Assembly: GCA_947085855.1 (NCBI GenBank)
Contig: CAMTYB010000001.1
Span: 149,788-213,787, forward strand
Source: an uncultured Candidatus Saccharibacteria bacterium
GTDB taxonomy: Bacteria > Patescibacteriota > Saccharimonadia > Saccharimonadales > 2-12-FULL-41-12
DNA: 64,000 nt
Reading direction: 5' to 3'
Made by a program: the position numbers and the translations under genes. Below the pieces are notes generated by a model. That model was not told the origin of the DNA and ran no database searches. It worked only from the letters and a program-made list of their open reading frames with translations. Positions 2 through 58,038 of this stretch are shown in pieces (position 1 is the stretch's first letter; the number at the start of each line of letters is the position of its first letter).

Positions 2-244
2 GAGCAAACATCGTCATTTAACGAAGCTGTGTCTTTAGCGGTCTTCTGCGAAGACCAAGCTGAAATTGACTATCTATGGGAGAAACTTTCGACCGATCCA
101 AAATTTGAGCAATGTGGCTGGTGCAAAGACAAATTTGGGGTCAGCTGGCAAATTGTGCCAAAAAATATTGAAGAACTGATGAAAAAACCAGATGCCTTCG
201 CCAAAATGATGGAGATGAAGAAATTGGTTATTGCCGATTTTTAA
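2..244 (+). CDS. PhnB-like / VOC-superfamily protein (3-demethylubiquinone-9 3-methyltransferase-domain family), C-terminal part; 5' end lies outside the window
   Basis: Frame is open from the window edge. The C-terminal sequence CEDQAEIDYLWEKLS...CGWCKDKFGVSWQIVP is typical of this family. Confidence 0.7.
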   Translation, partial: EQTSSFNEAVSLAVFCEDQAEIDYLWEKLSTDPKFEQCGWCKDKFGVSWQIVPKNIEELMKKPDAFAKMMEMKKLVIADF

Positions 245-4545: not shown

Positions 4546-5229
4546 CTACGGGGTACTTTCGACCATATACCCAATCCCATAAGCCGTTTTAATAATCGAA
4601 CTCTGAAAGGGCCGGTCAATTTTATCGCGGAGGTGCTTTATATGAACGTCAACGGTTCCATTCCAACTCTCTTTACCACTTTCCCAGGCATGGTTAAGGA
4701 TCATTTCCCTCGATACTGCTCTACCACGGTTACTCACAAGATATTGTAAGATATCAAATTCCTTGCGTCGTAAGGGCACCAAAACACCACAACGCCGCAC
4801 CTGTCGCCGACTGGTATCGACTTCGAGGTCACCAACGGTAATAATGCTGCCAATATAAGGCATAGGCTGACGCCGGGCGAGTGCAGTCACGCGAGCAACC
4901 AGCTCGGCTCCATTAAACGGCTTAGCCAAATAATCATCCGCGCCAGTTTCTAGTAACTGCACGCGTGACTGCACATCATCAACACCCGTCAAAATAAGAA
5001 TAGGTGACTTTACGCCATTCTCACGAATGGTCTTGCATATAATCATGCCGTGGATGTCCGGCAGACCAAGATCAAGGATGATAACTCCATAATTTACGAG
5101 GCCAATTTGATGCAGTGCATCCTTGCCGGTGTGTACAACGTCGACAAGATAGCGTTTGCCAAGCACCGACTTGATGCGTTTAGCCAACCCCTTGCTATCT
5201 TCCACTACAAGCAACTTCATCCCAAACAT
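4546..5229 (-). CDS. OmpR-family response regulator (receiver plus winged-helix DNA-binding domain)
   Basis: Receiver MKLLVVEDS...DLGLPD...; C-terminal wHTH (RRKEFDILQYLVSNRGRAVSRE...TVDVHIKHLRDKID...IKTAYGIGY). The likely true start is the ATG at 5220 (MKLLVVED), with AAGGA 9 nt upstream. Confidence 0.9.
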   Translation of the reverse strand: MFGMKLLVVEDSKGLAKRIKSVLGKRYLVDVVHTGKDALHQIGLVNYGVIILDLGLPDIHGMIICKTIRENGVKSPILILTGVDDVQSRVQLLETGADDYLAKPFNGAELVARVTALARRQPMPYIGSIITVGDLEVDTSRRQVRRCGVLVPLRRKEFDILQYLVSNRGRAVSREMILNHAWESGKESWNGTVDVHIKHLRDKIDRPFQSSIIKTAYGIGYMVESTP

Positions 5230-5399: not shown

Positions 5400-7454
5400 A
5401 TGAAACGTCTGGTGCGAGTAACTCCTCTACAATATATACTTTATGCCATTGTGAGTGCAGGAGTGCTCACAGTAGTACTGCAGACATTTACGGCTATACG
5501 CGTCGATAGTTGGAAGAGTGCTTTAGTCGGCGTATTACTCATCCAAATTGTTCAAATTATCTTACAGCCCTTATTTTCTTTACTGGCACGTGTATTGGGC
5601 ATGCTCGGTATTTTGCTTGTTAGCCTGTTTGGATATGCGCTTGTGGTGTGGGTAACACTCGAGATTGTGCCTGGCATCCACCATGTCAGCTTTTCTGGTA
5701 GCCTCGTCGGCACTTGGATATATGCTGCCGTTATTGCGTTCTTGCAGTGGATTATGCTGGCACAGTCAGACGAGTATTTTTTGCGGCAAGTAGTGCGCGG
5801 GGCAAAAAACAAAAAGCAAATAAAAACTGAGCAGCCAGGCTTTGTATTTGTTCAGCTTGATGGCGTCTCAACCCAAGTCTTAGAGTGGCAACTCAACACC
5901 GGCAACGTGCCAAACATTAAGCGGTTAATCGACTCCGATGCGTATGCGTTGCAAAATTGGCACACTCAGATCCCATCAACCACACCGGCATCTCAAGCAG
6001 GCATCCTATTTGGAACCAACCAAAACATTCCGGCGTTTAGGTGGTACGAGAGAGAAACCAATACATTTATGGTAGCCAACCAACCACGCAGTGCCGCATT
6101 GATAGAGAAGCGTCTAAGTACCGGTACTGGGCTATTGGTCGATGACGGCGTTAGCATTGGCAATCTCTTTTCTGGCGATGCCCCACACAACATTATGGTC
6201 ATGAGTAAGCTGGATGGTAATCGTCAATCACTGCAGGCTATGCGCGCTTATACGAACTATTTCTCAAATCTGTACGGCTTTATGCGTGCCTTCGTTCTGT
6301 CAATCGGTGAAATGGTCAAAGAGATCTATCAAGCACAGCGGCAACGCATACGTAAGATTGAGCCACGAGTGTCACGGCGGGCAAGCTATGTTGTTTTGCG
6401 AGCGGCTACCAATGTTTTGCTACGTGATTTGCAAACTACCATCGTGGCAGACCAGATGATTCAAGGCAAGAATTCAATTTATGTAGACTACTTGGATTAC
6501 GACGAAATCGCCCATCATGCCGGCATAGCCCGACCCGAGTCATTGGCTGCCCTAACAGGACTCGATCACATTGTCGGCATTCTCATGCAAGCCAAGCAGC
6601 ATGCACCACGGCCGTATCACATCGTCTTCGTGTCTGACCATGGCCAAAGTCAGGGAGCAACCTTCAAGCAACTACACCATGGCGTAAGCCTTGAGGATCA
6701 CATCGGGCAGCTACTTGGCACTTCAGCCGTACATGCCTCAACCAAGCCAGTTGAACAACAAAGTATAGTGCGGACATTATTAGCTCAAACTGGCGCTGGA
6801 ACTGGCGCTATAAGTTCCGTAATTGGAGTATTTGGTAAAAAATATAAACTCAAGAGTCAGCAGAACGCGACGCAGCACACAACTAAATCAACGAGCACTA
6901 CTAATGTAATCGTAACGGGGTCAGGCAATCTTGGTAATATTTGGCTGAAGAAGTTTGCTAAGCGTCCAAACAAAGAAGCCATCGACACAGCCTATCCGGG
7001 CTTTATTGATGCCTTGCTCGCTACCAAGGGGATCGGTTTAGTTATTGTTGATACGACTGACTCTGGACCAGTTTGCTACAGCCAGACAGGATCAATCGTA
7101 CTGAAAACAGGGGAGACTACGGGCGTAGATCCACTAGCCCAATATGATGCCATCCGGCCAAAAGATTTACTAAAAGTAGCCACTATGTCGAATACGCCAG
7201 ACGTACAAATACTTTCGAGTTTTCATCCCTCGTCAAAAGAAGTACACGCCTTTGAAGAGTTGGTAGGTAATCATGGTGGCATTGGCGGCTGGCAAACCAA
7301 TGCAATTTTGCTTTATCCAACCAAGCTCAAGATTGCCAGCCGCTTCTACGAAGACGGGGAATTATACGACAGTACAGTAATATATCACATTTTAACAGAT
7401 TGGCTTAAGAAGTCCGGTCACAGACGCGCAGTTGTAAAAAATAACCGTAACTAG
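5400..7454 (+). CDS. Membrane protein: holin-family-IV-like N-terminal TM region fused to an alkaline phosphatase / nucleotide pyrophosphatase-family domain
   Basis: Four N-terminal TM segments. Motifs FVFVQLDGVS, DYDEIAHHAG, FVSDHGQSQG and GNHGGIGG are typical of the type I phosphodiesterase/AP superfamily. ATG at 5400 follows AGAGGA. Confidence 0.8.
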   Translation: MKRLVRVTPLQYILYAIVSAGVLTVVLQTFTAIRVDSWKSALVGVLLIQIVQIILQPLFSLLARVLGMLGILLVSLFGYALVVWVTLEIVPGIHHVSFSGSLVGTWIYAAVIAFLQWIMLAQSDEYFLRQVVRGAKNKKQIKTEQPGFVFVQLDGVSTQVLEWQLNTGNVPNIKRLIDSDAYALQNWHTQIPSTTPASQAGILFGTNQNIPAFRWYERETNTFMVANQPRSAALIEKRLSTGTGLLVDDGVSIGNLFSGDAPHNIMVMSKLDGNRQSLQAMRAYTNYFSNLYGFMRAFVLSIGEMVKEIYQAQRQRIRKIEPRVSRRASYVVLRAATNVLLRDLQTTIVADQMIQGKNSIYVDYLDYDEIAHHAGIARPESLAALTGLDHIVGILMQAKQHAPRPYHIVFVSDHGQSQGATFKQLHHGVSLEDHIGQLLGTSAVHASTKPVEQQSIVRTLLAQTGAGTGAISSVIGVFGKKYKLKSQQNATQHTTKSTSTTNVIVTGSGNLGNIWLKKFAKRPNKEAIDTAYPGFIDALLATKGIGLVIVDTTDSGPVCYSQTGSIVLKTGETTGVDPLAQYDAIRPKDLLKVATMSNTPDVQILSSFHPSSKEVHAFEELVGNHGGIGGWQTNAILLYPTKLKIASRFYEDGELYDSTVIYHILTDWLKKSGHRRAVVKNNRN

Positions 7455-25924: not shown

Positions 25925-26014
25925 GGAGGGGTCGCCTAGTGGCCTATGGCGCACGCTTGGAAAGCGTGTTGGGCTGAGAAGTCCTCGAGGGTTCGAATCC
26001 CTCTCCCTCCGCCA
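25925..26014 (+). tRNA. tRNA-Ser (anticodon GGA), long variable arm, encoded CCA
   Basis: Acceptor GGAGGGG/TCCCTCC. Anticodon stem CACGC/GCGTG with loop TTGGAAA. T-arm GAGGG-TTCGAAT-CCCTC. Discriminator G followed by CCA. Confidence 0.95.
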
Positions 26015-26180
26015 GCCTCAAGCAAGGAGCTTTAGCTTGTTGATTGAGGCTGTTGAAAGAGACGGGATGAGAACCGAAGGTTCGGCGAATGAGCCGCGCA
26101 GGTAAAATCGTGTTCACATGATTTTATCGAGCAGCGAAGGAGAAGTGCGAGCCAGGCGAGCACGCTATCCCTCTCCCTCC
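26015..26180 (+). other. tRNA-Ser-distal cassette ending in a 14-nt direct copy of the tRNA 3' end
   Basis: ATCCCTCTCCCTCC occurs at 25997-26010 (in the tRNA) and again at 26167-26180. Between them lie a hairpin (26015-26050) and the blocks GAACCGAAGGTTCGG, ATGAG, CGCGCAGG and TCGAGCA. Confidence 0.6.
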
Positions 26181-26264: not shown

Positions 26265-29114
26265 ATGCCAAGGCTACCGGTTCCAGGCTCTGATGATGGG
26301 CAATGGGGAGATCTTCTCAATGCCTTTTTGCGCGTTGAACATAATGACGACGGTTCCTTAAAGACCCCTCCGGCTCCACTCAGCACTAAAGGTCAGCCCG
26401 GCGGCCTCGCCGAGCTTGATGGCAGCGGAAAAGTACCTACGAGCCAGCTGCCTGCTGCTGCGCTAGCCGGAGACGCTACTACGAGCGACAAAGGCGTAAT
26501 CCGGCTGACAGGAGATCTAGGCGGCACTGCAGACAGCCCGACAGTACCAGACTTAGCCGGCAAAGCTAACAGTGCAGACATTCTCGTCAAGACAAGCAAC
26601 TTAAGCGATCTCAACAACTTTACTACAGCCCGGGAGAACCTTGGCGTTGAAATTGGTGTTGATGTGCAAGCCTGGGACGCAGAACTGGATACGTGGTCTA
26701 CAAAGACAGCACCGAGCGGGGTAGTAGTAGGTACTTCTGATACGCAGACACTGACTAACAAGACTCTGACGAGTCCTGCGATTACCAGTCCAACCGGCAT
26801 TACTAAGAGTGATGTAGGACTTGGTAGCGCAGACAATACCTCTGATACTAACAAACCTATCTCAACAGCCACCCAAACAGCTCTCGACCTCAAGGAAAAT
26901 ACAGCTAACAAATCTACGAGTACCAGTCTTGGCAACAGTGACACTCTTTACCCGACACAGAATGCAGTCAAGAGCTATGTTGATGGTTTGACAGGCAGTT
27001 ATCTATCGCTCTCTGGCGGGATAATGACAGGCACGCTGAATCTTGCCAACACCGCCACTGATGGAGTCGTCCTGTATAACACCTCAGATCAAACGACTGA
27101 TTATGAGCGTTTTGCCGCCAGATATACTTCAAATGCATTTTACTTAGGTCACGAGTGGGCTGGAACTGGAACCTCGAGGACAACACATATAGGCGTAGCT
27201 TCAACCGCTGGAGTCCAACTAGGTACAAACGCGGGCCGATTCATAACAATCAAGCCAGCTATGCCATTTTTCACCATAAACAGCGGTGCAACCGGTCTCA
27301 CAGGCAACCTTCTTGACTACAGTCTGTCAACCCTTAGTGCGTCTAGCAGCACCCAGACAGCCCTTGCCATCAATCCAACAATCAACCAGAGCAGTACAGC
27401 CAGCTATACTATGCTGTCAATTAACCCGAGTATTACTGCGACTGGCTCGGGTACAAACTATCTGATCGATGCGCAAACTTCATCAAGTCCGCGCTTCCAA
27501 ATTAATGCCAGTGTGGGCGCAATCAATCAGGCACTGGTATCTGCACCGAATGGCGCAGGTGATGTGGCACTGGCTATACAAAACAATGCCACCACCGCTA
27601 ACGAGACCGCTAGCCTACTGTTCTATACCACGACCAATGCTGCAGCTCCGTTTGGGCGCATTCGAACCTTGCGAGTTGATGGCGGCAATAGTCGAGTTTC
27701 TATAGCAGCAATGAACACTTCTACCTTGGTGAACCATATTCAAATGTACGGCGACACAGGGTTAATGAGCCTAGGAGCAAACAGTACCCCAGCAAATGGC
27801 CTTGTCACCATAGGATCAAACACCACAACTTCGGCTGGCGGCTTATGGTTTGGTACAGATGCAAGTCTGTACAGAAGTGGTGCAGATACTTTGCGAACGG
27901 ATGATCGATTAATCTTAAGGCCTGTTTTAAGTACGGGTGGGTATCTGTCTGGTCTTGACGTTGACAACAATCCTTCTGCTCCAACTTTACGGACAATTGG
28001 TCTCATTTCATTTGCGACCATCGGCGATGATGCAATACCGTCAAGCTGGGCAGCTGGAGTTGAGGGTAGAGTAATATCCAATGTAACAACTGGCGGCACC
28101 GTGCCTCTGGCGTATGGACTAAACTTCAGTGTAGAAAATCGCTCCAGCGGCATCATGACTGATGCACGTGGTGTAAATGTAGCGGTCGGCAACTACTCAA
28201 CAGGAACAGGTACGATAGCAAACGCATACGGAGTATATGTTGACGTCAATCAAACAGGTGCGGGCAGTGGTGCCATCACAACAGGCCATGGAGTGTACAT
28301 ACGGGATGTAAACGCTGGAACCTCTTGGGGACTTTACCAAGTTGGAACAAACGACTTTAACTATTTTGGAGGTTATGTCGGTCTTGGCGTAAATACCACA
28401 GGGAATATAGTGTCTAGGCTTACCCTTGGAGCAGCAACAGATGCTGCCGGAGGCATAGCGTTTGGCACCGACACTAACCTGTACCGGAGTGCTGCCAACG
28501 CACTCCGGACGGATGACTCATTTTGGGCAAATTATATTTACTCAGTCACTGATCTTGTGACGCGTCAGGGCGGTGGTAGCCAAGCCAAGCTGGGTTATGC
28601 TGGTCCTTCCAACGAGGCGGGCATTGCGCTCGGACAAACCGGCGACACTAACCTGTACCGAAGCGCTGCCGATACGCTCAAGACCGATGATGCACTTGTA
28701 GTAGCAGGCGGCATTGATGCAAGCTCTCAGGTGATAGCAAATGTCGCCTCACCAGCCAACCCGACAGACGCCGCTAACAAGTCATACGTTGACTCCATTC
28801 TAAACACTCAGAGTATTAGTGCGCAGACAGGCACCACCTACACGCTAGTGCTAAGCGATGCCGGCAAACTAATCACACTCGCAAATGCAGCTGCAATCAC
28901 GCTCACAGTGCCGCCCAATTCAAGCGAGGCATTTCCGGTCGGCATCCGAATTGATCTTGCACAAGTCGACGTTGGGCAAGTCACGATAGCACCGGGAGGA
29001 GGCGTGACCATCAATGCAACCCCGGGGCTTAAACTGAGCGCACAATATGCTGGCGCAACACTTATTAAAACCGCCACTGACAGTTGGCTATTATTTGGAA
29101 GTTTGGCAGCCTAA
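26265..29114 (+). CDS. Phage-tail-fibre-like / surface fibre protein, paralogue 1 (949 aa)
   Basis: N-terminus MPRLPVPGSDDGQWGDLLNAFL...GKVPTSQLPAAA. Gly/Thr/Ser/Ala-rich. Repeated DTNLYRSAA(D/N)TL(K/R)TDD motifs. PANPTDAANKSYVDS collar-like motif near the C-terminal domain. Confidence 0.8.
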   Translation: MPRLPVPGSDDGQWGDLLNAFLRVEHNDDGSLKTPPAPLSTKGQPGGLAELDGSGKVPTSQLPAAALAGDATTSDKGVIRLTGDLGGTADSPTVPDLAGKANSADILVKTSNLSDLNNFTTARENLGVEIGVDVQAWDAELDTWSTKTAPSGVVVGTSDTQTLTNKTLTSPAITSPTGITKSDVGLGSADNTSDTNKPISTATQTALDLKENTANKSTSTSLGNSDTLYPTQNAVKSYVDGLTGSYLSLSGGIMTGTLNLANTATDGVVLYNTSDQTTDYERFAARYTSNAFYLGHEWAGTGTSRTTHIGVASTAGVQLGTNAGRFITIKPAMPFFTINSGATGLTGNLLDYSLSTLSASSSTQTALAINPTINQSSTASYTMLSINPSITATGSGTNYLIDAQTSSSPRFQINASVGAINQALVSAPNGAGDVALAIQNNATTANETASLLFYTTTNAAAPFGRIRTLRVDGGNSRVSIAAMNTSTLVNHIQMYGDTGLMSLGANSTPANGLVTIGSNTTTSAGGLWFGTDASLYRSGADTLRTDDRLILRPVLSTGGYLSGLDVDNNPSAPTLRTIGLISFATIGDDAIPSSWAAGVEGRVISNVTTGGTVPLAYGLNFSVENRSSGIMTDARGVNVAVGNYSTGTGTIANAYGVYVDVNQTGAGSGAITTGHGVYIRDVNAGTSWGLYQVGTNDFNYFGGYVGLGVNTTGNIVSRLTLGAATDAAGGIAFGTDTNLYRSAANALRTDDSFWANYIYSVTDLVTRQGGGSQAKLGYAGPSNEAGIALGQTGDTNLYRSAADTLKTDDALVVAGGIDASSQVIANVASPANPTDAANKSYVDSILNTQSISAQTGTTYTLVLSDAGKLITLANAAAITLTVPPNSSEAFPVGIRIDLAQVDVGQVTIAPGGGVTINATPGLKLSAQYAGATLIKTATDSWLLFGSLAA

Positions 29115-29116
29115 GC

Positions 29117-29800
29117 ATGTTTCATATTGGCATACAGGCAGCTGCTCAGCCTCTTCTTCACGGTCTTGTAGGTCACTGGAAATTTACTGGCAACGCGTTC
29201 GACTCATCTGGTAGCGGAAATAACTTATCGGTTGTAGGCGCAACCTTAGGAGCTAATAGATTTGGTACGAGTAGCGCGTCTTACTTCTTTAACGGTAGCG
29301 GTGCGTACCTTATAAAATCCACCCCCGTAACTGGCTTAAGTTTCACCGATAATTTCTCAATTAGCTTGTGGTGCAACATAGCTTCATTCTCTGAATCCTC
29401 GTACTTTGGACTAAAGAATGTCTTGGTACAGAAAGGTCCAGCGAGTACATATAATTTTGCTATCCAAGCTTCAAGTTCAACATCGATTAGCTTTATCAAG
29501 AGAACCACTCCTGAATCCCTCATTTTTCGAACGTTTACCGGACTATCTGACTATACGAATGCATGGACTCATATTGTCTGTGTTGTAACTGGCGGTTTTG
29601 TGAATTTGTACTTCAATGGTGTGTATATTTCTCAACTATCGGTCAGCAATATAGCCCCAGGACCAAGTGATAGTTTGCTTATTGGGAACATTGGCAGTAT
29701 AACGCCTTTTCAAGGCTCAATCGATGACATCAGAATATACAACCGACCCCTTAGCGCCCTAGAAGTAACTACGCTTCACGAGACAAGTCAAGATATCTAG
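29117..29800 (+). CDS. LamG / concanavalin-A-like lectin domain protein
   Basis: GHWKFTGNAFDSSGSGNN...SISLWCN...WTHIVCVV...NLYFNGV...GSIDDIRIYNRPLSALEV is a typical LamG-domain pattern. The ATG at 29117 lies 2 nt after the upstream stop. Confidence 0.8.
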   Translation: MFHIGIQAAAQPLLHGLVGHWKFTGNAFDSSGSGNNLSVVGATLGANRFGTSSASYFFNGSGAYLIKSTPVTGLSFTDNFSISLWCNIASFSESSYFGLKNVLVQKGPASTYNFAIQASSSTSISFIKRTTPESLIFRTFTGLSDYTNAWTHIVCVVTGGFVNLYFNGVYISQLSVSNIAPGPSDSLLIGNIGSITPFQGSIDDIRIYNRPLSALEVTTLHETSQDI

Positions 29801-29893
29801 ACAAATGAACCTTCGCACTTCGGTTGCTACCACTATAGTTTTTATGATTAAATACATGGTAAATAACATTGAGGTAACAAAAAAGAAGAAAAT

Positions 29894-32557
29894 ATGCCGC
29901 GCTTACCGGTTCCAGGCTCTGATGATGGGCAATGGGGAGATCTTCTCAATGCCTTCTTACGCGTTGAACATAATGACGACGGTTCCTTAAAGACCCTTTA
30001 TATTCCAGCGACAGAGAAGGGACAGGTCGATGGCATAGCCACGCTGGACAGTGGCGGAAAAGTGCCAACCAGTCAGCTGCCTGCCGCAGCTATCGCAGGT
30101 GACGCCACCGCTATCCAGAAGGGCATCCTCCAGTTATCGGGCGACTTAGGTGGCACAGCCAGTAGCCCAACCGTACCGGGCTTAGCCGGCAAAGCCGACA
30201 CCAGCGCTGTCCTCCTTAAGGGCAGTAACCTTTCTGACCTTAATAACTTCTCAACCGCTCGCTCTAACCTGGGACTAGCTATTGGCAGTGATGTCCAAGC
30301 CTGGGACGCCGACCTCGATACCTGGGCTACCAAAGTTGCACCAAGCGGTACTGTAGTAGGTACAAGCGACTCTCAAATCCTCACCAACAAAACGCTTACC
30401 AGCCCAGCCATCACGAGCCCTACGGGCATCACCAAGTCAGATGTTAGCCTCGGTAATGTCGACAATACAAGCGATCTTAGCAAGCCGATCTCAACCGCCG
30501 CCCAAACTGCTTTAGACCTCAAAGAAAATTCAGCTAACAAATCTACCCTTACTTCTCTCGGCACGTCAGATACACTATTTCCAACTCAAAACGCCGTTAA
30601 AGCCTACGTAGATACCCAAGTTGGCAGTTATATACCTTTGGCCGGCGGTACCGTAACAGGCAGCCTGACAATGTCCGGTGCTTCGACACAAATACTATTC
30701 CCAGACAACGGCACAACATCGGGAGGGCTTAGCTTTGGCGGTGACACAACATTCACTCGGACAAACACGGGAACTCTAAGAATAACTGCTGCTGCGCCAA
30801 TCTTGGAATTCACTTCAACCAACAACACATCAGGCATACGACTCAACGTAACGAGCGCTGCTACGACCGCTTTTAGGTTCCAATACTCCGGGACCTCACT
30901 GATAACTGTTAACCCCACTGGTACCACACTGATAAGTCCTAACAATAACACTGTAAGAACAATTAATACGATCGTCCCGCAACTCCAGGTGGAGGGCACG
31001 GATGCCGCGACGTCATCCTTCTCAATTACCAGAAATTCCGCTGACGCCAATGCGCCTGGCATATATCTATCTAAGTCTCGCGGTGCTGCCAATGGATCAA
31101 CGACTATCGTCCAATCTGGCGATAACCTTGGCCAGATAAGCTTCATGGGTGCAAATGGCACCAATACAAATGCATTTGGTGCTGCCATTAAAGCCGAAGT
31201 TGATGGAGCACCTGGCACGTCCGACATGCCGGGCCGTCTGGTTTTCATGACGACCCTAGACGGTGCTATTGCAGCTACCGAGCGCATGAGAATAGACAAC
31301 ACCGGTCAGGTTGGAATAGGTGTTACGCCAACTGCCTCAAATGGATACCTTCAACTACCGGCTGGCACCACCCTCGCTACTGGTGGTATTTCCTGGGGAA
31401 CTGATACGGCGTTGTACCGAACCAGCGCAGCCGTTATTAACGCCACCGGCGCACTAGTATCAAGCAGTTACGTAGTAGCCTATAATTCAAGTGCTTTCCA
31501 GGTTACACTCGGCCGTATCTCTGCCGGCGTGCCTGCCGCTGGCATTACACTCGGCTCTACACAAGATGTGAATATATATCGAGGTGCGGCCGACCAACTT
31601 AACACCGACGACAATATGGTCATTGCCCAGAAGTTAACAATCGGTAGCTCTACGTTGCAGCCGTATCTTTTCGATGTATCAGAAACATCGACTACTTTGA
31701 GCGGTACTTTACGAAGTATGTACTTCCACCCGAGCTATGTGCCTGCTAGTGATGATGGTAACGGCCTTTATTTACTTGCAGCTGTCATGGGCCCGACCTA
31801 TGGAGGTGCGATCAACAAAACAGCAAGCGGATCTTTTATGGGCGGCATTTACATCAACCCAATCATCAGTAGTACGGGTGGTATACCAATTAAAGGTATT
31901 GATATCAATGTCAGTAATAACTCAACTGCTACTATCCCTTATTACCGTGGTGTTGATGTCAGAGCTGCCGCTCCTGGTTCCGGAGCTATAACCACTGCCT
32001 ACGGAGTCTACATTGGAGATATGCAGCCTGCTGGTGTAACAACTGGCTACGGAGTCTATCTAGCTGGCACAGGGGTCGGTAACTCTATTAACTGGAACGG
32101 AGACACTAACTTATATCGAAGTGCGGCTAATACTCTTAAAACCGACGACAACCTGATTGTGGCTGGGGCAGGTAGTGCGGCTGGTTCAGTCGTAACCGTC
32201 GATAGCACGCAAAGCCTATCTAATAAGCGTCTGACGCCTCGCGTTACAACCATCACATCATCTGCAACTCCGACAGTTAATACCGACAATTGTGATGCAG
32301 TAACTATTACTGCTCTAGCTACAGCCATCACCTCTATGAGCAGTGGGCTCACCGGTACTCCGGTCGACTTCCAAAAACTCGTGATTCGCATCAAGGACGA
32401 TGGCACGGCTCGTGGTATCACATGGGGTGCTTCATTTGCGTCACGGGGTGTAACGCTGCCGACTACAACAGTCCTGTCTAAAGTCTTGACTGTTGGCCTT
32501 ATCTATAACACCGTATCGAGCACCTGGGACTGTGTAGCCGTGGCTCAGGAGTCCTAA
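29894..32557 (+). CDS. Phage-tail-fibre-like / surface fibre protein, paralogue 2 (887 aa)
   Basis: The first ~240 aa are collinear with paralogue 1 and the first 33 aa are identical. It carries the same NLYRSAANTLKTDD repeats but a different C-terminal domain. Confidence 0.8.
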   Translation: MPRLPVPGSDDGQWGDLLNAFLRVEHNDDGSLKTLYIPATEKGQVDGIATLDSGGKVPTSQLPAAAIAGDATAIQKGILQLSGDLGGTASSPTVPGLAGKADTSAVLLKGSNLSDLNNFSTARSNLGLAIGSDVQAWDADLDTWATKVAPSGTVVGTSDSQILTNKTLTSPAITSPTGITKSDVSLGNVDNTSDLSKPISTAAQTALDLKENSANKSTLTSLGTSDTLFPTQNAVKAYVDTQVGSYIPLAGGTVTGSLTMSGASTQILFPDNGTTSGGLSFGGDTTFTRTNTGTLRITAAAPILEFTSTNNTSGIRLNVTSAATTAFRFQYSGTSLITVNPTGTTLISPNNNTVRTINTIVPQLQVEGTDAATSSFSITRNSADANAPGIYLSKSRGAANGSTTIVQSGDNLGQISFMGANGTNTNAFGAAIKAEVDGAPGTSDMPGRLVFMTTLDGAIAATERMRIDNTGQVGIGVTPTASNGYLQLPAGTTLATGGISWGTDTALYRTSAAVINATGALVSSSYVVAYNSSAFQVTLGRISAGVPAAGITLGSTQDVNIYRGAADQLNTDDNMVIAQKLTIGSSTLQPYLFDVSETSTTLSGTLRSMYFHPSYVPASDDGNGLYLLAAVMGPTYGGAINKTASGSFMGGIYINPIISSTGGIPIKGIDINVSNNSTATIPYYRGVDVRAAAPGSGAITTAYGVYIGDMQPAGVTTGYGVYLAGTGVGNSINWNGDTNLYRSAANTLKTDDNLIVAGAGSAAGSVVTVDSTQSLSNKRLTPRVTTITSSATPTVNTDNCDAVTITALATAITSMSSGLTGTPVDFQKLVIRIKDDGTARGITWGASFASRGVTLPTTTVLSKVLTVGLIYNTVSSTWDCVAVAQES

Positions 32558-32560
32558 AAG

Positions 32561-34654
32561 ATGGCAAACAGATATTGGGTCGGTGGTACAGCAACATGGA
32601 ATGGCGTGGCCGCTTCAAAATGGTCGACTACTTCCGGTGGAGCAAGCGGAGCATCAACACCGACCGCAGCCGATGATGTCTTTTTTGACGCCGCTTCAGG
32701 TGCAGCTATCGTGACGCTTGCCTCTACTGGCAGTGTAGCCCGCTCTGTTAATTGCACTGGCTTTACTGGGGAGATTATACACACTGCAACCGTACCCCTT
32801 ACGCTCGGCGACAGTACGGCCGGGGCAGGCAACGTAGCTCTTCTACTGAGCGCCACGATGACATATACCGTTAACGTTGCTGCCACCTCAACCATTGCTT
32901 TTGTGTCAACCTCTGCAACTCAGCAAACAATCACCACAAACGGCAAGACTCTTGGAAGTTGGTCTATTAATGGGGCAGGCAGCAACTATCTGCTTGCCGA
33001 TAGTAATAGCGTTAGTTCGACTGCAACGGTTACGCTTACTCAAGGCACATTGAATACAAATAGCCAGACATGTTCATGGGGATTCTTTAGTTCAACAAAC
33101 TCAAACACCAGGACGCTAACCATGGGTAGTTCCGCTATAACCCTAACTGCTACCGGCACAGCATGGAACACGAGCACCTTCACAAACCTGACCGTTACAG
33201 CTAACACCTCAGTTGTCACTCTAACTGGCGCAGCCTCTACTTGGTTTGGCGGCTCCGGATTCAACACCAACGGTGGTTCTATTGTAATGGCTGGCTCTGG
33301 GCTAGCCACCGTCGCCAATAGCTTTACTTGTGCCAATCTTACGCGAACTGGCACAGCCTCCAGAACTGACAGCATGCAATTTAACGGCGGCAGTACTGTC
33401 GTAACTGGCACGCTCACTATAACTGGTAATAGTGCCGTAAATCGTGTACTCGTGACATCCCTTACGATAGGCACAGCCTGTAATGTAACTGCGGCAGCCG
33501 TATCGCTAGCCAATGTTGATTTTAGAGATATAAATGCCATTGGGGCAGCCATACCATTCACCGGCACATCGCTTGGCGACTGCCTTGGCAACACTAATAT
33601 TACTTTTGACACACCAACAACGCGTTACTGGGTAGGAGGAGGGGGTGAGTGGAGCAGTACCAATAGGTGGTCAACAACGTCTGGCGGTTCGAGTGGTGCC
33701 AGCGTGCCGCTACCACAAGATGATGTTATTATCGACGACAATTCGGGCTCGGGCTTTACTTTCACAATGGGGATGCCAAGAATTGGTAAGAACGTCACCT
33801 TTTCAATAACAAACCCTTGTACATACGCAAGCGCTGGCAACACTCTTACGGTCTACGGCTCAATAACACTACCTGCTGCGCTCACAAACAGCTGGCTTAA
33901 CACGACCACATTTGCAGGCAGAAGTTCGCACACCGTCACTTCTAACAGTAAGTCCTTTTTCACCCTCGTGATTGCAGCTCCTACCGGTACGTATACGCTA
34001 ACCGATGCAATAGTCATACCTAACAACTTCACGCTCAACGGAGGCACATTTGCTTCTGCTGGATTCGGTGTAACAGCAGCCGCATTCCTTGGTTCAAGCA
34101 CGGCCGGTGCAATTACATTAAATATGGGGAGTAGTACGTGGACCATGACAAGTACGGCAGTCATCACCGTCTTTGGCATGGGTGCTGGTACCGTTACGAA
34201 TTCAAGCGCGTCAACTATTGTAGTAGCCAACGCCAGTGCAAATACACGAACATTTACTGGCACCAGTCAGACATTCGGCACATTAACTTACATCGTTGCA
34301 GGCTCCACCGGTCAGCTCAACATTACTGGCTCAAATACGTTTAGTACTATTAATTTTTCAGATGTTAGTAATTCCAGAACGCTACGATTTACCAGTGGCA
34401 CCACAACCACGATTACCAGCAACTTTAACGTCAATGGCACCGCCGGCAAGCCTATGATAATAAGTTCGAGTACGGGTGGCTCAGCCGCCATACTTTCCAA
34501 GTCGAGCGGTATTATTATGTGCGACTATTTATCAATTCAGGACTCCACAGCAACCGGCGGTGCCAGCTGGTATGCGGGTTCCAATTCAACGAGTGTGTCA
34601 GGTAATTCTGGTTGGATTTTTAATAATCCGAGTGACTTTTTGCAAATGTTCTAA
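32561..34654 (+). CDS. Beta-helix-like surface protein with a duplicated RYWVGG...WSTTSGG...DDV module (697 aa)
   Basis: MANRYWVGGTATWNGVAASKWSTTSGGASGASTPTAADDVFFD recurs internally as TRYWVGGGGEWSSTNRWSTTSGGSSGASVPLPQDDVIID. Thr/Ser/Gly/Asn-rich short-strand repeats. Confidence 0.8.
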   Translation: MANRYWVGGTATWNGVAASKWSTTSGGASGASTPTAADDVFFDAASGAAIVTLASTGSVARSVNCTGFTGEIIHTATVPLTLGDSTAGAGNVALLLSATMTYTVNVAATSTIAFVSTSATQQTITTNGKTLGSWSINGAGSNYLLADSNSVSSTATVTLTQGTLNTNSQTCSWGFFSSTNSNTRTLTMGSSAITLTATGTAWNTSTFTNLTVTANTSVVTLTGAASTWFGGSGFNTNGGSIVMAGSGLATVANSFTCANLTRTGTASRTDSMQFNGGSTVVTGTLTITGNSAVNRVLVTSLTIGTACNVTAAAVSLANVDFRDINAIGAAIPFTGTSLGDCLGNTNITFDTPTTRYWVGGGGEWSSTNRWSTTSGGSSGASVPLPQDDVIIDDNSGSGFTFTMGMPRIGKNVTFSITNPCTYASAGNTLTVYGSITLPAALTNSWLNTTTFAGRSSHTVTSNSKSFFTLVIAAPTGTYTLTDAIVIPNNFTLNGGTFASAGFGVTAAAFLGSSTAGAITLNMGSSTWTMTSTAVITVFGMGAGTVTNSSASTIVVANASANTRTFTGTSQTFGTLTYIVAGSTGQLNITGSNTFSTINFSDVSNSRTLRFTSGTTTTITSNFNVNGTAGKPMIISSSTGGSAAILSKSSGIIMCDYLSIQDSTATGGASWYAGSNSTSVSGNSGWIFNNPSDFLQMF

Positions 34655-34662
34655 ATTGTCTA

Positions 34663-35370
34663 TCAGCTGATTTTAGTGCCGATGTTTTTGCCTGAAGCAG
34701 CAGACGCGATAGCATCTTCTTGCATTGGATTGAAGATAACTAGTTGCATGCCTTGCTCCATAGCAAGACCCATAGCAGCCTTGTCCATCACTTTGATGTG
34801 AGCGTTTTCAACGGCGTGCTGAAAGTCTAGGCTTTCGAAAATCTTAGCTTCCGGGTGTTTGGCCGGATCTTTATCATAAACACCATCAACCTTGGTGGCT
34901 TTCAGTACAATATCGCAGTCCATTTCTAAGCCGAGGGAAACAGCTGCCGTATCAGTCGTAAGATAGGGTCGACCAAGACCGCCGGCCGCAACTACAATTC
35001 GACCTTTTTCAAGGTGTTTATTTGCCAAACGATAGACGAATTTTTCGGCTACTTGTTCGGCAAAAATATTGCTAAGGCAGCGGGTTTTAACATTATTAGC
35101 TTCAAAAATGTCAGTTAATGCCAGGGCGTTGATCATAGTAGCCAACATGCCCATATGGTCGCCGGTAACGCGACGGATGCCATGGCCGGCAATTTGGGCG
35201 CCACGGACAAAGTTGCCACCACCAACCATAATAACCACTTCAGTGCCAGTGTCAGAGACTTTTTTCACTTCTTGAGCAAACCAAGCTGCCAGCTCAGGAT
35301 CTATACCGTTATCAAATTTGCCGGCCAACATCTCGCCGGAGAGTTTGAGGAGAACTCGTTTATAAGCCAT
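34663..35370 (-). CDS. pyrH: UMP kinase
   Basis: YKRVLLKLSGE, MVGGGNFVRG and the typical 235-aa length. Confidence 0.95.
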   Translation of the reverse strand: MAYKRVLLKLSGEMLAGKFDNGIDPELAAWFAQEVKKVSDTGTEVVIMVGGGNFVRGAQIAGHGIRRVTGDHMGMLATMINALALTDIFEANNVKTRCLSNIFAEQVAEKFVYRLANKHLEKGRIVVAAGGLGRPYLTTDTAAVSLGLEMDCDIVLKATKVDGVYDKDPAKHPEAKIFESLDFQHAVENAHIKVMDKAAMGLAMEQGMQLVIFNPMQEDAIASAASGKNIGTKIS

Positions 35371-38373: not shown

Positions 38374-38674
38374 GATTCCTTCTATCTTTCAGGCTTTTAT
38401 ATTTAGATTCTATAGGGCAGGTTAGGTACGTAATCTGAATCATGTTGTCCTCATGATAGCCTTTTTGTACACAACTGCAAGCATGAGCAAGCTACCCTAA
38501 TCAGATAGTCCAGACTCGCTCCTCAGTTGTGAATTTAACCATAGTTGCAGCCACAGCCTGCAAGTCGGCACAGCCATGGTCTGTCGGTCCATAACCACAC
38601 CTCAGTAAAGCAACTACTTACCTTGGTCTTACTTATGCTTGCAAATCTTCATACCATCTCTATGATGATAAGAT

Positions 38675-39163
38675 ATGACGGATATACTAACTGGCTATAC
38701 CCACGAGCAGTACGAAGAAGCCTTAACCATCTTCGAGAGAGCGCAGACAATAGCACTCAACGCCGGCAATATTGCAGAAGGTGCGCGGTTAGCTAACGCT
38801 TTCGCGAATGTCGCCCACGGCATGGGCAACCTGTCTACGGCAGAGAGATGTCACCGTGACGCTATCTATAACTATCAACTAGAAGACGAGACCGAACGAC
38901 TTGGGCGTCCGGCGGAAGAGATCGTGCCAGCCAGAAAAGAAATCTTTGGCCAGTACGCTTTGTTAGGTACTGTGTTCGGCAGTCGACCGAGAGGACTCAA
39001 AACAGAATCCAAGCTACGCAGTCTTAAACGCGAAATCTTGGACACAGATCCAGTCGCCAGGGAAGATGTCGTTGCCGGCCTATGGGCACTCCATGTTACA
39101 CACGATAGCCTCGGCAAGGTAGGCCTCGGTTACCGCGGCATCAACATCCGACCGACGAGCTAA
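38675..39163 (+). CDS. Hypothetical protein (helical, TPR-like N-terminus)
   Basis: 162-aa ORF with no recognised motif. Confidence 0.5.
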   Translation: MTDILTGYTHEQYEEALTIFERAQTIALNAGNIAEGARLANAFANVAHGMGNLSTAERCHRDAIYNYQLEDETERLGRPAEEIVPARKEIFGQYALLGTVFGSRPRGLKTESKLRSLKREILDTDPVAREDVVAGLWALHVTHDSLGKVGLGYRGINIRPTS

Positions 39164-39320
39164 GCACCTTGCAACACTGTGCGAACTAGCCGCATATATG
39201 GACGGACTTGGTATTCGAGCACTGCTCATCCACGATAAAGACCCGACACCACGTCCAATGAAGACATGGCTCGCTGCCATTCAGAAAAACCGCTAGTAAT
39301 ACACAGGTAGTTTAGACCAA

Positions 39321-39343
39321 GGTTCAAGTCCGTCTCCCTGCCA
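39321..39343 (+). other. Orphan tRNA 3'-end fragment (T-loop to CCA), no upstream tRNA body
   Basis: GGTTCAAGTCCGTCTCCCTGCCA. The sequence upstream cannot form the T-stem, D-arm or anticodon arm. It resembles the tRNA-Ser 3' end (GGTTCGAATCCCTCTCCCTCCGCCA) with substitutions and a 2-nt gap. Confidence 0.6.
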
Positions 39344-39345
39344 AT

Positions 39346-39378
39346 AAAAATACCCCACACAAGGTGAGGTATTTTTAT
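39346..39378. terminator. Bidirectional rho-independent terminator-like hairpin
   Basis: AAAAATACCCCAC-ACAA-GGTGAGGTATTTTTATTT has an A-run and a T-run on opposite sides. It lies between the tRNA fragment (+) and tRNA-Leu (-). Confidence 0.6.
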
Positions 39379-39379
39379 T

Positions 39380-39467
39380 TGGTACCGCGGGCCGGACTTG
39401 AACCGGCACGAGCGTAATGCTCACAAGATTTTGAGTCTAGCGTGTCTACCAATTCCACCACCGCGGC
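39380..39467 (-). tRNA. tRNA-Leu (anticodon CAA), long variable arm, encoded CCA
   Basis: Minus-strand read: GCCGCGGTGGTGGAATTGGTAGACACGCTAGACTCAAAATCTTG...GGTTCAAGTCCGGCCCGCGGTACCA. The anticodon loop is CTCAAAA. The anticodon stem has one U-U mismatch. Confidence 0.9.
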
Positions 39468-55221: not shown

Positions 55222-55659
55222 ATGCCGCGACTACCAATTCCAGGCAGCGACACTGGCGATTGGGGAGACATCCTCAATGATTTTTTGAGCCAGTCACTCA
55301 CATCTAGTGGCGAGTTACAAGATAATACAGTCGGTACAGACCAAGTTCAAAACTCATCAGTTACAAAAACCAAACTAGCTGGCGCAGTTCAAACCTCCTT
55401 AGATAAGGCTGACGCCGCCATACCGGCCACCGAAAAAGGTGCCGTTTCTGGCGTAGCTACACTTGACGGATCAAGTCGACTAAACAGCGGCCAATTACCA
55501 ACGACTGTCGGGACTAAGAGCGAAACAAAAGCTGTTGTCCAGCATGGCGCAACCGCGAGTACAGCCCGCCCGTCTGGCTATGGTTCGGTTGAGTGGATTG
55601 GTTCAGTTGAGCCACTTAACGCTATCGATGGTGACACCTGGATAGACACTAGTACATAG
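55222..55659 (+). CDS. Fibre-like protein, short paralogue 3 (N-terminal module only, 145 aa)
   Basis: MPRLPIPGSDTGDWGDILNDFL...LNSGQLPTTV is homologous to the N-termini of the 26265 and 29894 products. Confidence 0.7.
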   Translation: MPRLPIPGSDTGDWGDILNDFLSQSLTSSGELQDNTVGTDQVQNSSVTKTKLAGAVQTSLDKADAAIPATEKGAVSGVATLDGSSRLNSGQLPTTVGTKSETKAVVQHGATASTARPSGYGSVEWIGSVEPLNAIDGDTWIDTST

Positions 55660-55662
55660 ACT

Positions 55663-56421
55663 ATGGCTACACGACTTTACTTTGCAGATTCGGCTCCGGC
55701 AGTAACCCCCACACCACATTCTCAATGGTCGGGAAGCAGCCCATTTAACTATGGCAGCCTCGGCTTAGCTGCTGCGAATACTAGTTACGCCGAAAAAAGC
55801 AAGAATAGAGGGAGCGGCACTACCGTGCAAATCCCTGCAGTATCTTTAGTCAGCCCACCTTTAGCTATTGGCACTAACTTTACGACAACCGACACGTTTA
55901 AAATTGTCGCCCGCTCCCGCGAAAATACCACGGCTAACGATGGCAGTTCATGTGTCTCAATTCGAATCGTTGATAGCGCTGGCGCCCCCAAGGCCGTCCT
56001 ATACACCGAGAACATTATTGGCTCAGGTAACATAAGCGAGTGGACAACCGTTCTAAGAAATCAAAAGTTCCCCCGCAGTGCAGCAGACAACGGAGATACG
56101 GCTCTACAAGCTAACTACACGACAGTGGCCGATGATAGGCTAGAAATAACACTTGGAGCCCGCCTGGGTGGCGACTTTGCTATTTGCTATGTCGAAATCG
56201 GCGATTTAACTTCCAGCACCGACCTAGCGCACAACGCTACCAGTACAACTGCCGGACGTCCGTGGGCCGAGTTCAGCAATAACTTTGCATTTTACGTAGC
56301 GCCGGGCACTATCAAATCAAAAAGTAGCGGCAGTTTTGATGAACACAACATCAAGCTCCGCAGTGGCGGGGTTTGGCAAGCTCACACCGTAAAAAATCGC
56401 AGTGGCGGCACGTTCTCTTAA
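55663..56421 (+). CDS. Hypothetical beta-rich protein coupled to fibre paralogue 3
   Basis: Starts 3 nt after the upstream stop. MATRLYFADSAPAVTPTP... is Ser/Thr/Ala/Gly-rich. No family recognised with confidence. Confidence 0.65.
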   Translation: MATRLYFADSAPAVTPTPHSQWSGSSPFNYGSLGLAAANTSYAEKSKNRGSGTTVQIPAVSLVSPPLAIGTNFTTTDTFKIVARSRENTTANDGSSCVSIRIVDSAGAPKAVLYTENIIGSGNISEWTTVLRNQKFPRSAADNGDTALQANYTTVADDRLEITLGARLGGDFAICYVEIGDLTSSTDLAHNATSTTAGRPWAEFSNNFAFYVAPGTIKSKSSGSFDEHNIKLRSGGVWQAHTVKNRSGGTFS

Positions 56422-57629: not shown

Positions 57630-57655
57630 ACTCAGCACAATGATAACCTCACGGG

Positions 57656-57790
57656 GAAGACAACATTTCGTCACATGCTCGAAGCAAGACTCCTGCGCGT
57701 GTTCCTCATGAACGAACCCCTGCGGGCTTCGCGGTTCGCTTGTGCGAACTAACCAAGCAAAAAGCCCTCCATATCGGAGAGCCTTTTGCT
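57656..57790 (-). other. tRNA-Glu-distal cassette ending in a direct copy of the tRNA 3' end; homologous to the tRNA-Ser cassette
   Basis: Plus-strand ACCTCACGGGGAA occurs at 57796-57808 (in the tRNA) and at 57656-57668. It extends to 18 nt with 2 mismatches, covering a degenerate CCA. Read on the minus strand, the cassette runs hairpin, GAACCG...GGTTCG hairpin, ATGAG, CGCGCAGG, TCGAGCA, then the repeat. Confidence 0.6.
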
Positions 57791-57865
57791 TGGTGACCTC
57801 ACGGGGAATCGAACCCCGATTGCCAGGATGAGAACCTGGTGTCCTAACCGTTAGACGATAAGGCC
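57791..57865 (-). tRNA. tRNA-Glu (anticodon CUC), encoded CCA
   Basis: Minus-strand read: GGCCTTATCGTCTAACGGTTAGGACACCAGGTTCTCATCCTGGCAATCGGGGTTCGATTCCCCGTGAGGTCACCA. The anticodon loop is TTCTCAT. Confidence 0.95.
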
Positions 57866-58038
57866 ATGAGCGAGGAGGGAAGATGAGTGCTTGCACATAT
57901 CTTCGTGACGAGCGATTGGTCTAATCTCGAAGAGATGAGGCCGAGTGCTTTATTACCACCTGACGCAACAGATCAAAATTATACTACAGAGGGGGAGTAT
58001 CGTCTATTACCCCCATCTACGGTATACTGAAATCAACA

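Follow-up and report, generated by a model that had tools for sequence, protein, structure and literature searches.

Cassettes built partly from tRNA sequence follow tRNA-Glu and tRNA-Ser genes in Saccharimonadales and resemble RtT in architecture

A 64,000-nt stretch of an uncultured Candidatus Saccharibacteria genome (assembly GCA_947085855.1, contig CAMTYB010000001.1, positions 149,788 to 213,787 of the forward strand; hereafter the window) encodes three tRNAs, Ser-GGA, Leu-CAA and Glu-CTC, and we analysed the cassettes that lie behind the Ser and Glu genes. These cassettes are ~150 nt long, non-coding, located 3′ of the tRNA genes and partly assembled from pieces of their own tRNA. They recur behind the same tRNAs in related genomes, end in a replica that varies with the tRNA of its own genome, and share their architecture with RtT of the E. 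coli tyrT operon. The most economical reading, which we adopt tentatively, is that they are RtT-like trailer elements of tRNA genes, with an end that mimics that of the tRNA.

RtT entered the catalogues 35 years ago, still lacks a mechanism and is mainly known from Gammaproteobacteria; a tRNA-derived design is now also found in the ultra-small genomes of Patescibacteria. Because spacer DNA is scarce in a genome of ~0.8 Mb and all three window tRNAs carry an inverted T-arm design, selection or active copying is likely. A replica that tracks each genome's tRNA provides comparative material on the purpose of a tRNA-end mimic. Furthermore, a repeat of the tRNA 3′ end is on its own no proof of an integrated element, which matters for island-finding software and for the annotation of Candidate Phyla Radiation (CPR) genomes.

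Anatomy of the cassettes

Downstream of tRNA-Glu, a long hairpin, a ~100-nt non-coding stretch and a replica matching 16 of the last 18 nt of the tRNA follow in this order (Table 1). The hairpin abuts the CCA of the tRNA, as the original prediction had described; in the minimum-free-energy (MFE) fold it extends further, with the ACCA of the tRNA pairing with the TGGT (UGGU) 3′ of it. It is terminator-like in its GC core and in the U run within its 3′ strand, and was not called by a simple terminator scan. The inverted copy of the T arm behind it is the source of the CGAACC strand of the P1 hairpin, whose 3′ strand, GGGGTTCG, is identical to the 5′ half of the tRNA-Glu T arm; an alternative hairpin, GTTCGC-ACAA-GCGAAC (57734-57749), has the CGAAC strand in common with it. 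P1, ATGAG, CGCGCAGG and TCGAGCA were all found 3′ of tRNA-Glu in the order that had been predicted. Across the family YGAGCA lies 8-24 nt 3′ of CGCGCARR, and the small hairpin before the replica keeps its place in 8 of 9 cassettes, with a different sequence in each.

That the Glu cassette ends in a copy of the tRNA 3′ end stands beyond shuffle expectation: no shuffle reached two sites as good as the Glu tRNA end and its replica, and exact matches of 13-14 nt, as in the Glu and Ser replicas, appeared in 0/3000 shuffles. The replica runs from 57641 to 57658, so the cassette start first proposed, 57656, cuts into it and falls 15 nt short. In the Ser cassette the 3′ strand of the GAACC-GAA-GGTTC hairpin, GAAGGTTCG, is likewise identical to the 5′ half of its own tRNA's T arm.

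Table 1 Positions of tRNAs and cassette parts in the window.
Feature	Position	Strand	Remark
tRNA-Ser(GGA)	25925-26014	+	ARAGORN; Rfam tRNA
Ser cassette, whole	26015-26180	+	3′ of tRNA-Ser(GGA)
Long imperfect hairpin after tRNA-Ser	26015-26050	+	No U run behind it
Ser cassette interior	26051-26166	+	Blocks and folds
5′ strand GAGACGGGAT	26059-26068	+	Able to pair with distal copy; fold, RtT-consensus-like
Inverted T-arm-like segment GGGATGAGAACC	about 26062-26078	+	Ser interior
GAACC-GAA-GGTTC hairpin	26071-26083	+	Ser interior
CGCGCAGG	26095-26102	+	Ser interior
Variable hairpin	26103-26126	+	Ser interior
TCGAGCA	26127-26133	+	Ser interior
Pre-copy hairpin	26145-26163	+	Ser interior
Distal replica of tRNA-Ser 3′ end, ATCCCTCTCCCTCC	26167-26180	+	14 nt exact; CCA end lost
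tRNA-Leu(CAA)	39380-39467	-	One of three tRNAs in the window
Hairpin after tRNA-Leu	39343-39380	-	5′ of the inverted T-arm copy
Inverted T-arm copy in tRNA-Leu trailer	39321-39331	-	13/17, 12 nt exact, +45; 16/5000 shuffles
tRNA-Glu(CTC)	57791-57865	-	Complete, CCA encoded; ARAGORN; Rfam tRNA 59.4 bits
Hairpin AGCAAAAGGCTCTCC-GATA-TGGAGGGCTTTTTGCT	57756-57790	-	35 nt; abuts CCA; 19-bp stem in MFE fold
Reverse-complement copy of own T arm, CGCACAAGCGAACCGCG vs CGGGGAATCGAACCCCG	57724-57740 (approximate)	-	12/17; +44 from tRNA end
P1 hairpin CGAACC...GGTTCG	57713-57738	-	Sequence; 7 pairs kept in 5 Glu orthologues
ATGAG	within 57700-57712	-	Sequence
Block CGCGCAGG, family form CGCGCARR	57692-57699	-	Conserved across family
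Block TCGAGCA, family form YGAGCA	57676-57682	-	
Small hairpin directly 5′ of distal copy	57659-57672	-	Sequence and fold
Distal replica of tRNA-Glu 3′ end (T-loop position 59 to CCA), TTCCCCGTGAGGTTATCA	57641-57658	-	16/18 identical, 13 nt exact

The inverted T-arm copy sits at a fixed distance from the tRNA. In every cassette-bearing trailer (window Glu, Ser and Leu; related loci L126, L127, L132, L337, L134 and L155 and the tRNA-Ser of L216) the best match to the tRNA's own inverted T arm lies at +42 to +50 with 10-13 of 17 positions matching, and the L134 and L155 cassettes, otherwise unrelated in sequence, carry it there as well. Among 18 cassette-less trailers the best such match is weaker and scattered from +3 to +173. 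The tRNA-Leu trailer thus completes the design on 3/3 window tRNAs; it has no significant direct copy of the tRNA 3′ end, and its similarity to the Glu and Ser cassettes or to RtT is not significant. Reading a cassette as a colinear pseudo-tRNA was rejected, as local alignment to its own tRNA is not significant (p=0.08 to 0.7) and the T-arm pieces alone stand out.

Kinship and distribution among Saccharimonadales

About 45 orthologous loci were retrieved with the neighbouring histidine kinase and ABC ATPase as anchors, whose nearest relatives are in Saccharimonadales/Saccharibacteria (CPR) assemblies, and ~0.8 Mb of Saccharimonadales DNA was scanned for the cassette core (loci are labelled L126, L216 and so on). 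The core (~70 nt: CGAACC..GGTTCG, CGCGCAGG and GAGCA) has seven copies in this DNA, all of them on the tRNA strand and right behind the post-tRNA hairpin of a tRNA-Glu or a tRNA-Ser.

The Glu and Ser cassettes had been predicted to share collinear blocks. A direct comparison within the window bears this out in part: the pattern ATGAG..CGCGCAGG..TCGAGCA has two window matches, Glu and Ser, against 0 expected, a post hoc figure for a pattern built from both sites, and gap-tolerant alignment gives z=3.3 (0/500 shuffles), whereas ordinary local alignment does no better than shuffles (491/1000 reach the score) and a Glu covariance model (CM) aligns the Ser cassette in the correct register at E=1.7 only. 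The relationship is secured by the tRNA-Ser cassette of L216, because this one links to both sides: Glu-only models match it (nhmmer E=3e-5; CM E=1e-5) and it aligns with the window Ser cassette at z=8.2. On these comparisons the Glu-Ser kinship, weak directly, is solid by way of the cassettes of related Saccharimonadales, in agreement with the proposal of one family in which each cassette bears an end repeat specific to its own tRNA.

Pattern searches outside the relatives returned chance matches. A three-block exact pattern gave 120 matches in the genome collection, all by chance in GC-rich genomes and none near a tRNA. A looser cassette pattern hit phage tRNA arrays in IMG/VR by chance (L231, L238, L261, L308, L319 and L331), where GGTTCGA came from a T loop, CGCGCA from an acceptor end and GAGCA from the D arm of the next tRNA; tRNA-derived motifs alone can therefore yield such collinear blocks.

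Model-based scans, which the original prediction had proposed for the whole genome or metagenome bin, were run on the related DNA and found the family again at the same tRNAs. Homologous cassettes follow tRNA-Glu in L126, L127, L132 and L337 (z against the window 7-27), and those of L132 and L337 are near-identical (z=30). The tRNA-Glu cassettes of L134 and L155/156, 115 and 174 nt long, have sequence-unrelated interiors and perfect 21-nt replicas. Together with the window, these are the tRNA-Glu loci that carry a cassette, and at least 16 others do not; at tRNA-Ser the window and L216 have one and L215 and L338 lack it. Presence and absence are therefore polymorphic at both tRNAs among relatives.

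Orthologous Glu cassettes are far more alike than the Glu/Ser pair of the window (z=27 vs 3.3), which suggests that they are old and vertically inherited. L216 (tRNA-Ser) and L337 (tRNA-Glu) belong to one genome, and there the centres of the Ser and Glu cassettes are identical at 28/30 positions (z=14.3, above the Ser-Ser similarity), which points to intragenomic homogenisation. The blocks CGCGCARR and YGAGCA, which are not tRNA-derived, are kept across genomes whose neighbouring histidine kinases share only ~71-73% identity and whose intergenic DNA flanking the cassettes is unalignable.

The replica follows the tRNA of its own genome. At five variable tRNA columns it shows the state of that genome (window, L126, L127, L134 and L155), so that lineage-specific tRNA substitutions are mirrored (two in L126, one in L127, and also in L134 and L155), and the replicas of relatives are exact over 17-21 nt. 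It is also dispensable, to judge from its decay: the window Glu replica has two changes and that of L337 five, the window Ser replica lacks the CCA end, and L216 Ser has none, while the core is intact in all four cases. The interior, and not the repeat, is therefore the constrained part.

The hairpins directly behind the tRNAs appear to be exchanged independently of the cassettes. The near-identical cassettes of L132 and L337 stand behind unrelated hairpins, and both hairpin arms are almost exactly common to the window tRNA-Leu (AAATAAAAATACCTCA...TGGGGTATTTTTATT, 39343-39380) and the tRNA-Glu of L337 (ATAAAAATACCCCA...TGGGGTATTTTTAT, about 5695-5731).

Comparison with RtT and a putative trailer RNA

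Rfam assigns the units at E. coli tyrT/tyrV to RtT (RF00391, 133-138 bits; the tyrT locus, L339, served as reference). Behind tyrV, 178-nt units each end in the exact 19-nt end of tRNA-Tyr, at +159, +337 and +515, and at +62 RtT carries GAAGGATGAGAAGCTTC, a reverse-complement copy of the tRNA-Tyr T arm (14/17), with the direct AAGGTTCGA behind it. The cassettes likewise lie in a tRNA operon on the tRNA strand and have both an inverted T arm (+42 to +50 vs +62) and the direct 5′ half of the T arm. Where RtT repeats the last 19 nt of the adjacent tRNA from the T loop exactly and three times, the window has 16/18 at Glu and 14 exact nt at Ser. In the Rfam consensus a 5′ strand of RtT pairs with the terminal replica, as GAGACGGGAU pairs with AUCCCUCUC in the window Ser cassette. 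Both occur at different tRNAs, RtT varying between strains and the cassettes patchy among relatives.

Moreover, the Ser cassette and RtT have GGATGAGAACC, AAGGTTCG, TCGAGC and GCGA.GAGAAG in common; gap-tolerant alignment of the pair gives z=5.4, a score that 0/1000 shuffles and 2/3000 random segments of the window attain, and GGATGAGAACC is an inverted T arm with the identical TC-to-GA change in both organisms. The cassettes differ from RtT in the long hairpin between tRNA and element (none at tyrT), in their conserved insert CGCGCARR...YGAGCA, in the absence of an embedded open reading frame (ORF) such as tpr, and in their hosts (Patescibacteria vs Gammaproteobacteria).

RtT of E. coli tyrT (Bosl & Kersten 1991, as cited in PMC4986893 and PMC2965389) has been described as a by-product that tRNA operon transcripts release. 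Members of the family adjoin tRNAs for Asn and Lys, with expression described in Actinobacillus (PMC4986893), Erwinia strains differ in how many they have and where (PMC7542023), RtT resembles BIME-type repeats (PMC2965389), and its role is still unassigned (bioRxiv 10.1101/2024.07.17.603846). Searching the E. coli asn-tRNA region gave no further RtT copies.

From this architecture we infer transcription, processing and a cellular role for the cassettes along the following lines. A cassette would be a trailer module of the tRNA transcription unit, built largely from the T arm and 3′ end of the tRNA: a long hairpin at the CCA, an inverted T arm at +42-50 nt, the direct 5′ half of the T arm (GGTTCG), a ~50-nt insert (CGCGCARR, a variable hairpin, YGAGCA), a small hairpin and a ~18-nt replica of the tRNA end. 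Because it has no promoter of its own, it would be transcribed by read-through from the tRNA promoter. The 3′ end of the folded RNA would imitate the T-stem/acceptor/CCA end of a tRNA, and because of this imitation the tRNA-processing machinery could trim it and release a stable by-product RNA, as has been reported for rtT RNA from the tyrT operon of E. coli. The replica might be kept identical to the tRNA through recognition by a shared enzyme or partner, or through recombination with the neighbouring gene, and the two direct repeats would allow precise loss at the DNA level, giving the patchy distribution.

Several features suggest, weakly, that the cassettes are an RNA. All of them run in sense with their tRNA. 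Hairpins hold their position while loop length and sequence vary freely, stem changes occur on both sides (GCGAC/GTCGC vs GCAC/GTGC in L132 and L337), and several stems contain G-T pairs on the tRNA strand. No promoter-like sites were found inside the cassettes, and one lies upstream of the tRNA-Glu leader (58006-57978). We rejected a coding reading, since the short ORFs are not conserved and are frame-shifted and the indels between orthologues are not multiples of 3, and an antisense reading (3′-untranslated-region or PBS-like), since the orientation of the flanking genes is not conserved.

The leader itself, ~77 nt between the promoter-like site and tRNA-Glu (57866-57942, minus strand), is kept across Saccharimonadales, cassette-less genomes included (window, L125, L126, L132, L136, L139, L144 and L337). 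Its 5′ part is an acceptor-stem-like minihelix whose first 7-9 nt repeat the 5′ end of the tRNA and change along with it (window, GGCCTCATC; L126, GGTCGCATC; L136, GGCCCCTT); CTCGG and a hairpin with the loop GYAARCAC and compensatory changes follow. It has no Rfam match.

A number of results weigh against the RtT-like reading. RF00391 does not match either window cassette at its gathering threshold (45 bits) or at E<=10, and Rfam reports only tRNAs on both cassettes and six related loci; an E. coli RtT profile (nhmmer) and CM fail to find the cassettes, and cassette models fail to find E. coli RtT. Homology to RtT is thus unproven, and because T arms are nearly universal in sequence the shared blocks may reflect that universality and the likeness may be convergent; having tested the cassettes for homology to the family without finding it, we do not file them as RF00391 members. 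At tyrT, RtT forms 3.14 tandem units, and a cassette is a single unit with two copies of the tRNA end per locus. Support from folding is also weak: cassette z values are only -0.7 to -2.8 and no better than those of the opposite strand, and in an RNAalifold analysis of five Glu cassettes many pairs are broken and covariation earns no net bonus. Behind tRNA-Glu, moreover, stands what looks like an efficient intrinsic terminator hairpin, which would limit read-through; the tRNA-Ser hairpin has no U run. Finally, since the replica decays in several lineages, its role cannot be universal.

The same decay and the weak RNA-structure statistics would suit functionless relics of partial tRNA duplications, homogenised at times by gene conversion with the adjacent tRNA, an account that we consider rather improbable. 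On this account the T-arm pieces and the duplicated 3′ end would go back to slippage, or to recombination of an unequal or illegitimate kind, in the 3′ half of the tRNA, an origin to which we give no better chance; much of a cassette can indeed be read as T-arm-derived pieces, and unequal recombination is the classical explanation of the tyrT repeats in E. coli. Relics fit poorly, however, with non-tRNA core blocks that are kept in a ~0.8-Mb genome with scarce spacer DNA while the flanks have become unalignable, with hairpins maintained through the paired changes of L132/L337, and with one architecture common to three types of tRNA and to the L134 and L155 cassettes, which are unrelated in sequence.

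A broader reading would unite the cassettes and enterobacterial RtT in one widespread, novel class of tRNA-templated elements, which taken as a whole we regard as improbable. Its members, not autonomous themselves, would use the T arm and 3′ end of the host tRNA to rebuild their own ends, and recombination at the T loop would let them spread, or persist, between tRNA genes; mobility as such would account for a repeat that follows the tRNA and for the near-identical Ser and Glu centres of one genome. Alternatively, they would be kept as mimics of the tRNA end acting on tRNA-binding factors such as RNase P, the CCA-adding enzyme or the stringent-response sensor. In either case the inverted T-arm hairpin, with a loop that complements the T loop, would make direct contact with the tRNA.

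Integration and guide RNAs as rival readings, and neighbouring loci

The RtT-like reading has a serious rival in integration, which accounts for the end repeat, for the presence/absence polymorphism and for a replica that tracks the tRNA, and which we nevertheless judge unlikely. The cassettes would then be miniature non-autonomous integrative elements, or attL/attR scars, inserted and excised at the T loop and 3′ end by a tyrosine recombinase encoded elsewhere; the distal copy would be the displaced host tRNA end and the core a set of binding sites for the recombinase and accessory proteins, again unlikely in our estimate. Integration into a tRNA gene leaves a direct repeat of the tRNA 3′ portion, and a repeat from T loop to CCA is its classical signature; Williams reportedly laid out the sublocation logic of such integration in 2002. 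Here, however, the core persists where the repeat has decayed or is gone.

Presence/absence polymorphism at orthologous tRNAs speaks for integration, and a replica perfect in some lineages and decayed in others would suit events of different ages, whereas the closer resemblance among orthologous cassettes than within the window pair indicates vertical descent. Repeated excision and reintegration would explain a replica that matches the host's current tRNA, and the 28/30 identity of the Ser and Glu centres in the genome of L216 and L337 would fit as well; near-identical cassettes behind unrelated hairpins, as in L132/L337, are a poor fit to a single inserted block. Nor do att arms look like an inverted T-arm copy at fixed offset with free-loop hairpins; they predict neither a tRNA-derived interior nor its better conservation, and the design on 3/3 window tRNAs also speaks against integration.

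The original prediction had noted that no integrase is present, and none was found among 20 ORFs scanned around the three window tRNAs; the Pfam lists of neighbours and scans showed no recombinase in or beside any of the about 45 related loci, and housekeeping and surface-protein genes only. A full-length relative carrying a recombinase, which had been suggested as a target of search, did not turn up: the ~0.8 Mb of related DNA holds no larger autonomous element with the core, which is seen only in cassettes of 115-175 nt, and pattern scans of IMG/VR, three in all, were empty or matched coding DNA and phage tRNA arrays by chance. Of the family of tRNA-3′-end-targeting elements originally proposed, the family and its tRNA-specific repeats therefore stand, and nothing shows that the repeat is a target duplication made by an integrase or mobile element.

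Synteny breaks just past the distal copy, and an 8.4-kb island lies behind the window Ser cassette, as integration would have it; the adjacent islands have no third repeat to close them. Four genes occupy 26265-34654, the interval that separates the Ser cassette from AA_kinase (34663-35370): two for DUF5907 fibre-like proteins (949 and 887 aa; 26265-29114 and 29894-32557), one for a Laminin_G_3 protein and one for a 697-aa protein. AA_kinase adjoins tRNA-Ser in L216 and L338, and the 8.4 kb are therefore a lineage-specific insertion at the window tRNA, which has no flanking repeat and no recombinase. A fibre-like paralogue had been proposed at 55222-56421, facing the Glu cassette. In line with this, the N-terminal module MPRLP.PGSD.G.WGD.LN.FL of the 145-aa ORF at 55222-55659 recurs in the 949-aa DUF5907 protein (E=2e-12); the 252-aa ORF at 55663-56421 has no such N-terminus.

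Far less probable is a guide-type RNA, a scaffold and hairpin followed by a 17-21-nt 3′ guide to the tRNA gene for a TnpB/Cas12-like protein encoded elsewhere, for example in homing. In omega-RNA and crRNA layouts, and in the homing spacers of CRISPR-associated transposons (CAST), a scaffold precedes the guide, and the cassette scaffold, its terminal hairpin of free sequence and the 17-21-nt match to the tRNA resemble this arrangement. Such a protein is absent near all loci, however, the scaffold is kept while the guide decays or is absent, and there is neither a promoter nor an Rfam match to known guide scaffolds.

Other known systems overlap with the cassettes in part. Like att-flanked elements that lack an integrase (CIMEs) and remnants of tRNA-integrated islands (reviewed in PMC5704250), the cassettes have a direct tRNA 3′ repeat bounding a gene-less insert, presence/absence polymorphism and a synteny breakpoint near variable surface-protein genes. 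CIMEs measure kilobases and the cassettes 115-175 nt, and unlike CIMEs the cassettes have no cognate integrase or autonomous relative among the loci and scans covered here and an interior that is tRNA-derived and better conserved than the repeat. The group I introns of Patescibacteria tRNAs are extra RNA elements at tRNA genes of the same phylum, but they self-splice and sit in the anticodon loop (positions 35/36), whereas the cassettes lie downstream of an intact tRNA; a group I intron was rejected here, as the tRNAs are intact and Rfam finds no intron. Repetitive extragenic palindromes (REP) and BIMEs are, like the cassettes, short, hairpin-rich, non-coding and 3′ of genes; they occur in hundreds of copies at many kinds of gene and have no replica of a tRNA end, in which the cassettes differ. 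Small RNAs from the 3′ external transcribed spacers (3′ETS) of tRNA operons, such as 3′ETS-leuZ, are operon by-products with a possible role of their own, as the cassettes are proposed to be, and only the cassettes copy the tRNA. Comparison by eye with dif/Xer sites, attC, IS200/IS605 ends and group II intron domain V led to their rejection, since their defining motifs and Rfam matches are lacking.

Among the relatives, L156 (3075-3272, equivalent to L155 366-560; minus strand) has the 5′ part of another tRNA-Glu ~195 nt upstream of the intact one. This fragment of 52 nt comprises the acceptor, the D arm and the anticodon arm as far as the T stem and has a -10-like box to itself; behind it come ~118 nt that end in GGTCGATTCC and an inverted T-arm copy. 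The region has no Rfam match. Together with the 21-nt 3′ replica, the fragment looks like an older tRNA-Glu gene whose T arm has been split by a segment with the functional tRNA on it. A comparable 5′ fragment is present at the tRNA-Glu (TTC) of L157 (about 4650-4830), and GCAAGRCCGGAAGC is common to both.

Several Logan contigs from short-read metagenomes, which belong to this organism and to close relatives (L121, L122, L124, L125 and L212-L214), end in tRNA-Glu or tRNA-Ser or exactly at the tRNA 3′ end, L124 at window position 26014. These breaks likely reflect tRNA sequence common to co-occurring species, and because this explains them we did not count them as evidence of polymorphism; strain variation downstream is also compatible.

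Downstream of tRNA-Leu, about 1 kb (38374-39379, minus strand) contains no convincing gene, the sole candidate being a 162-aa ORF, which lies on the opposite strand and matches TPR weakly. Within the same region, GGCTAGTTCGCACA (39178-39191) agrees at 13/14 positions with the beginning of the Glu cassette, and CAAGTCCGTCC lies at 39200-39210. At the tRNA-Leu orthologue of L216, a glycosyltransferase gene lies directly behind the tRNA.

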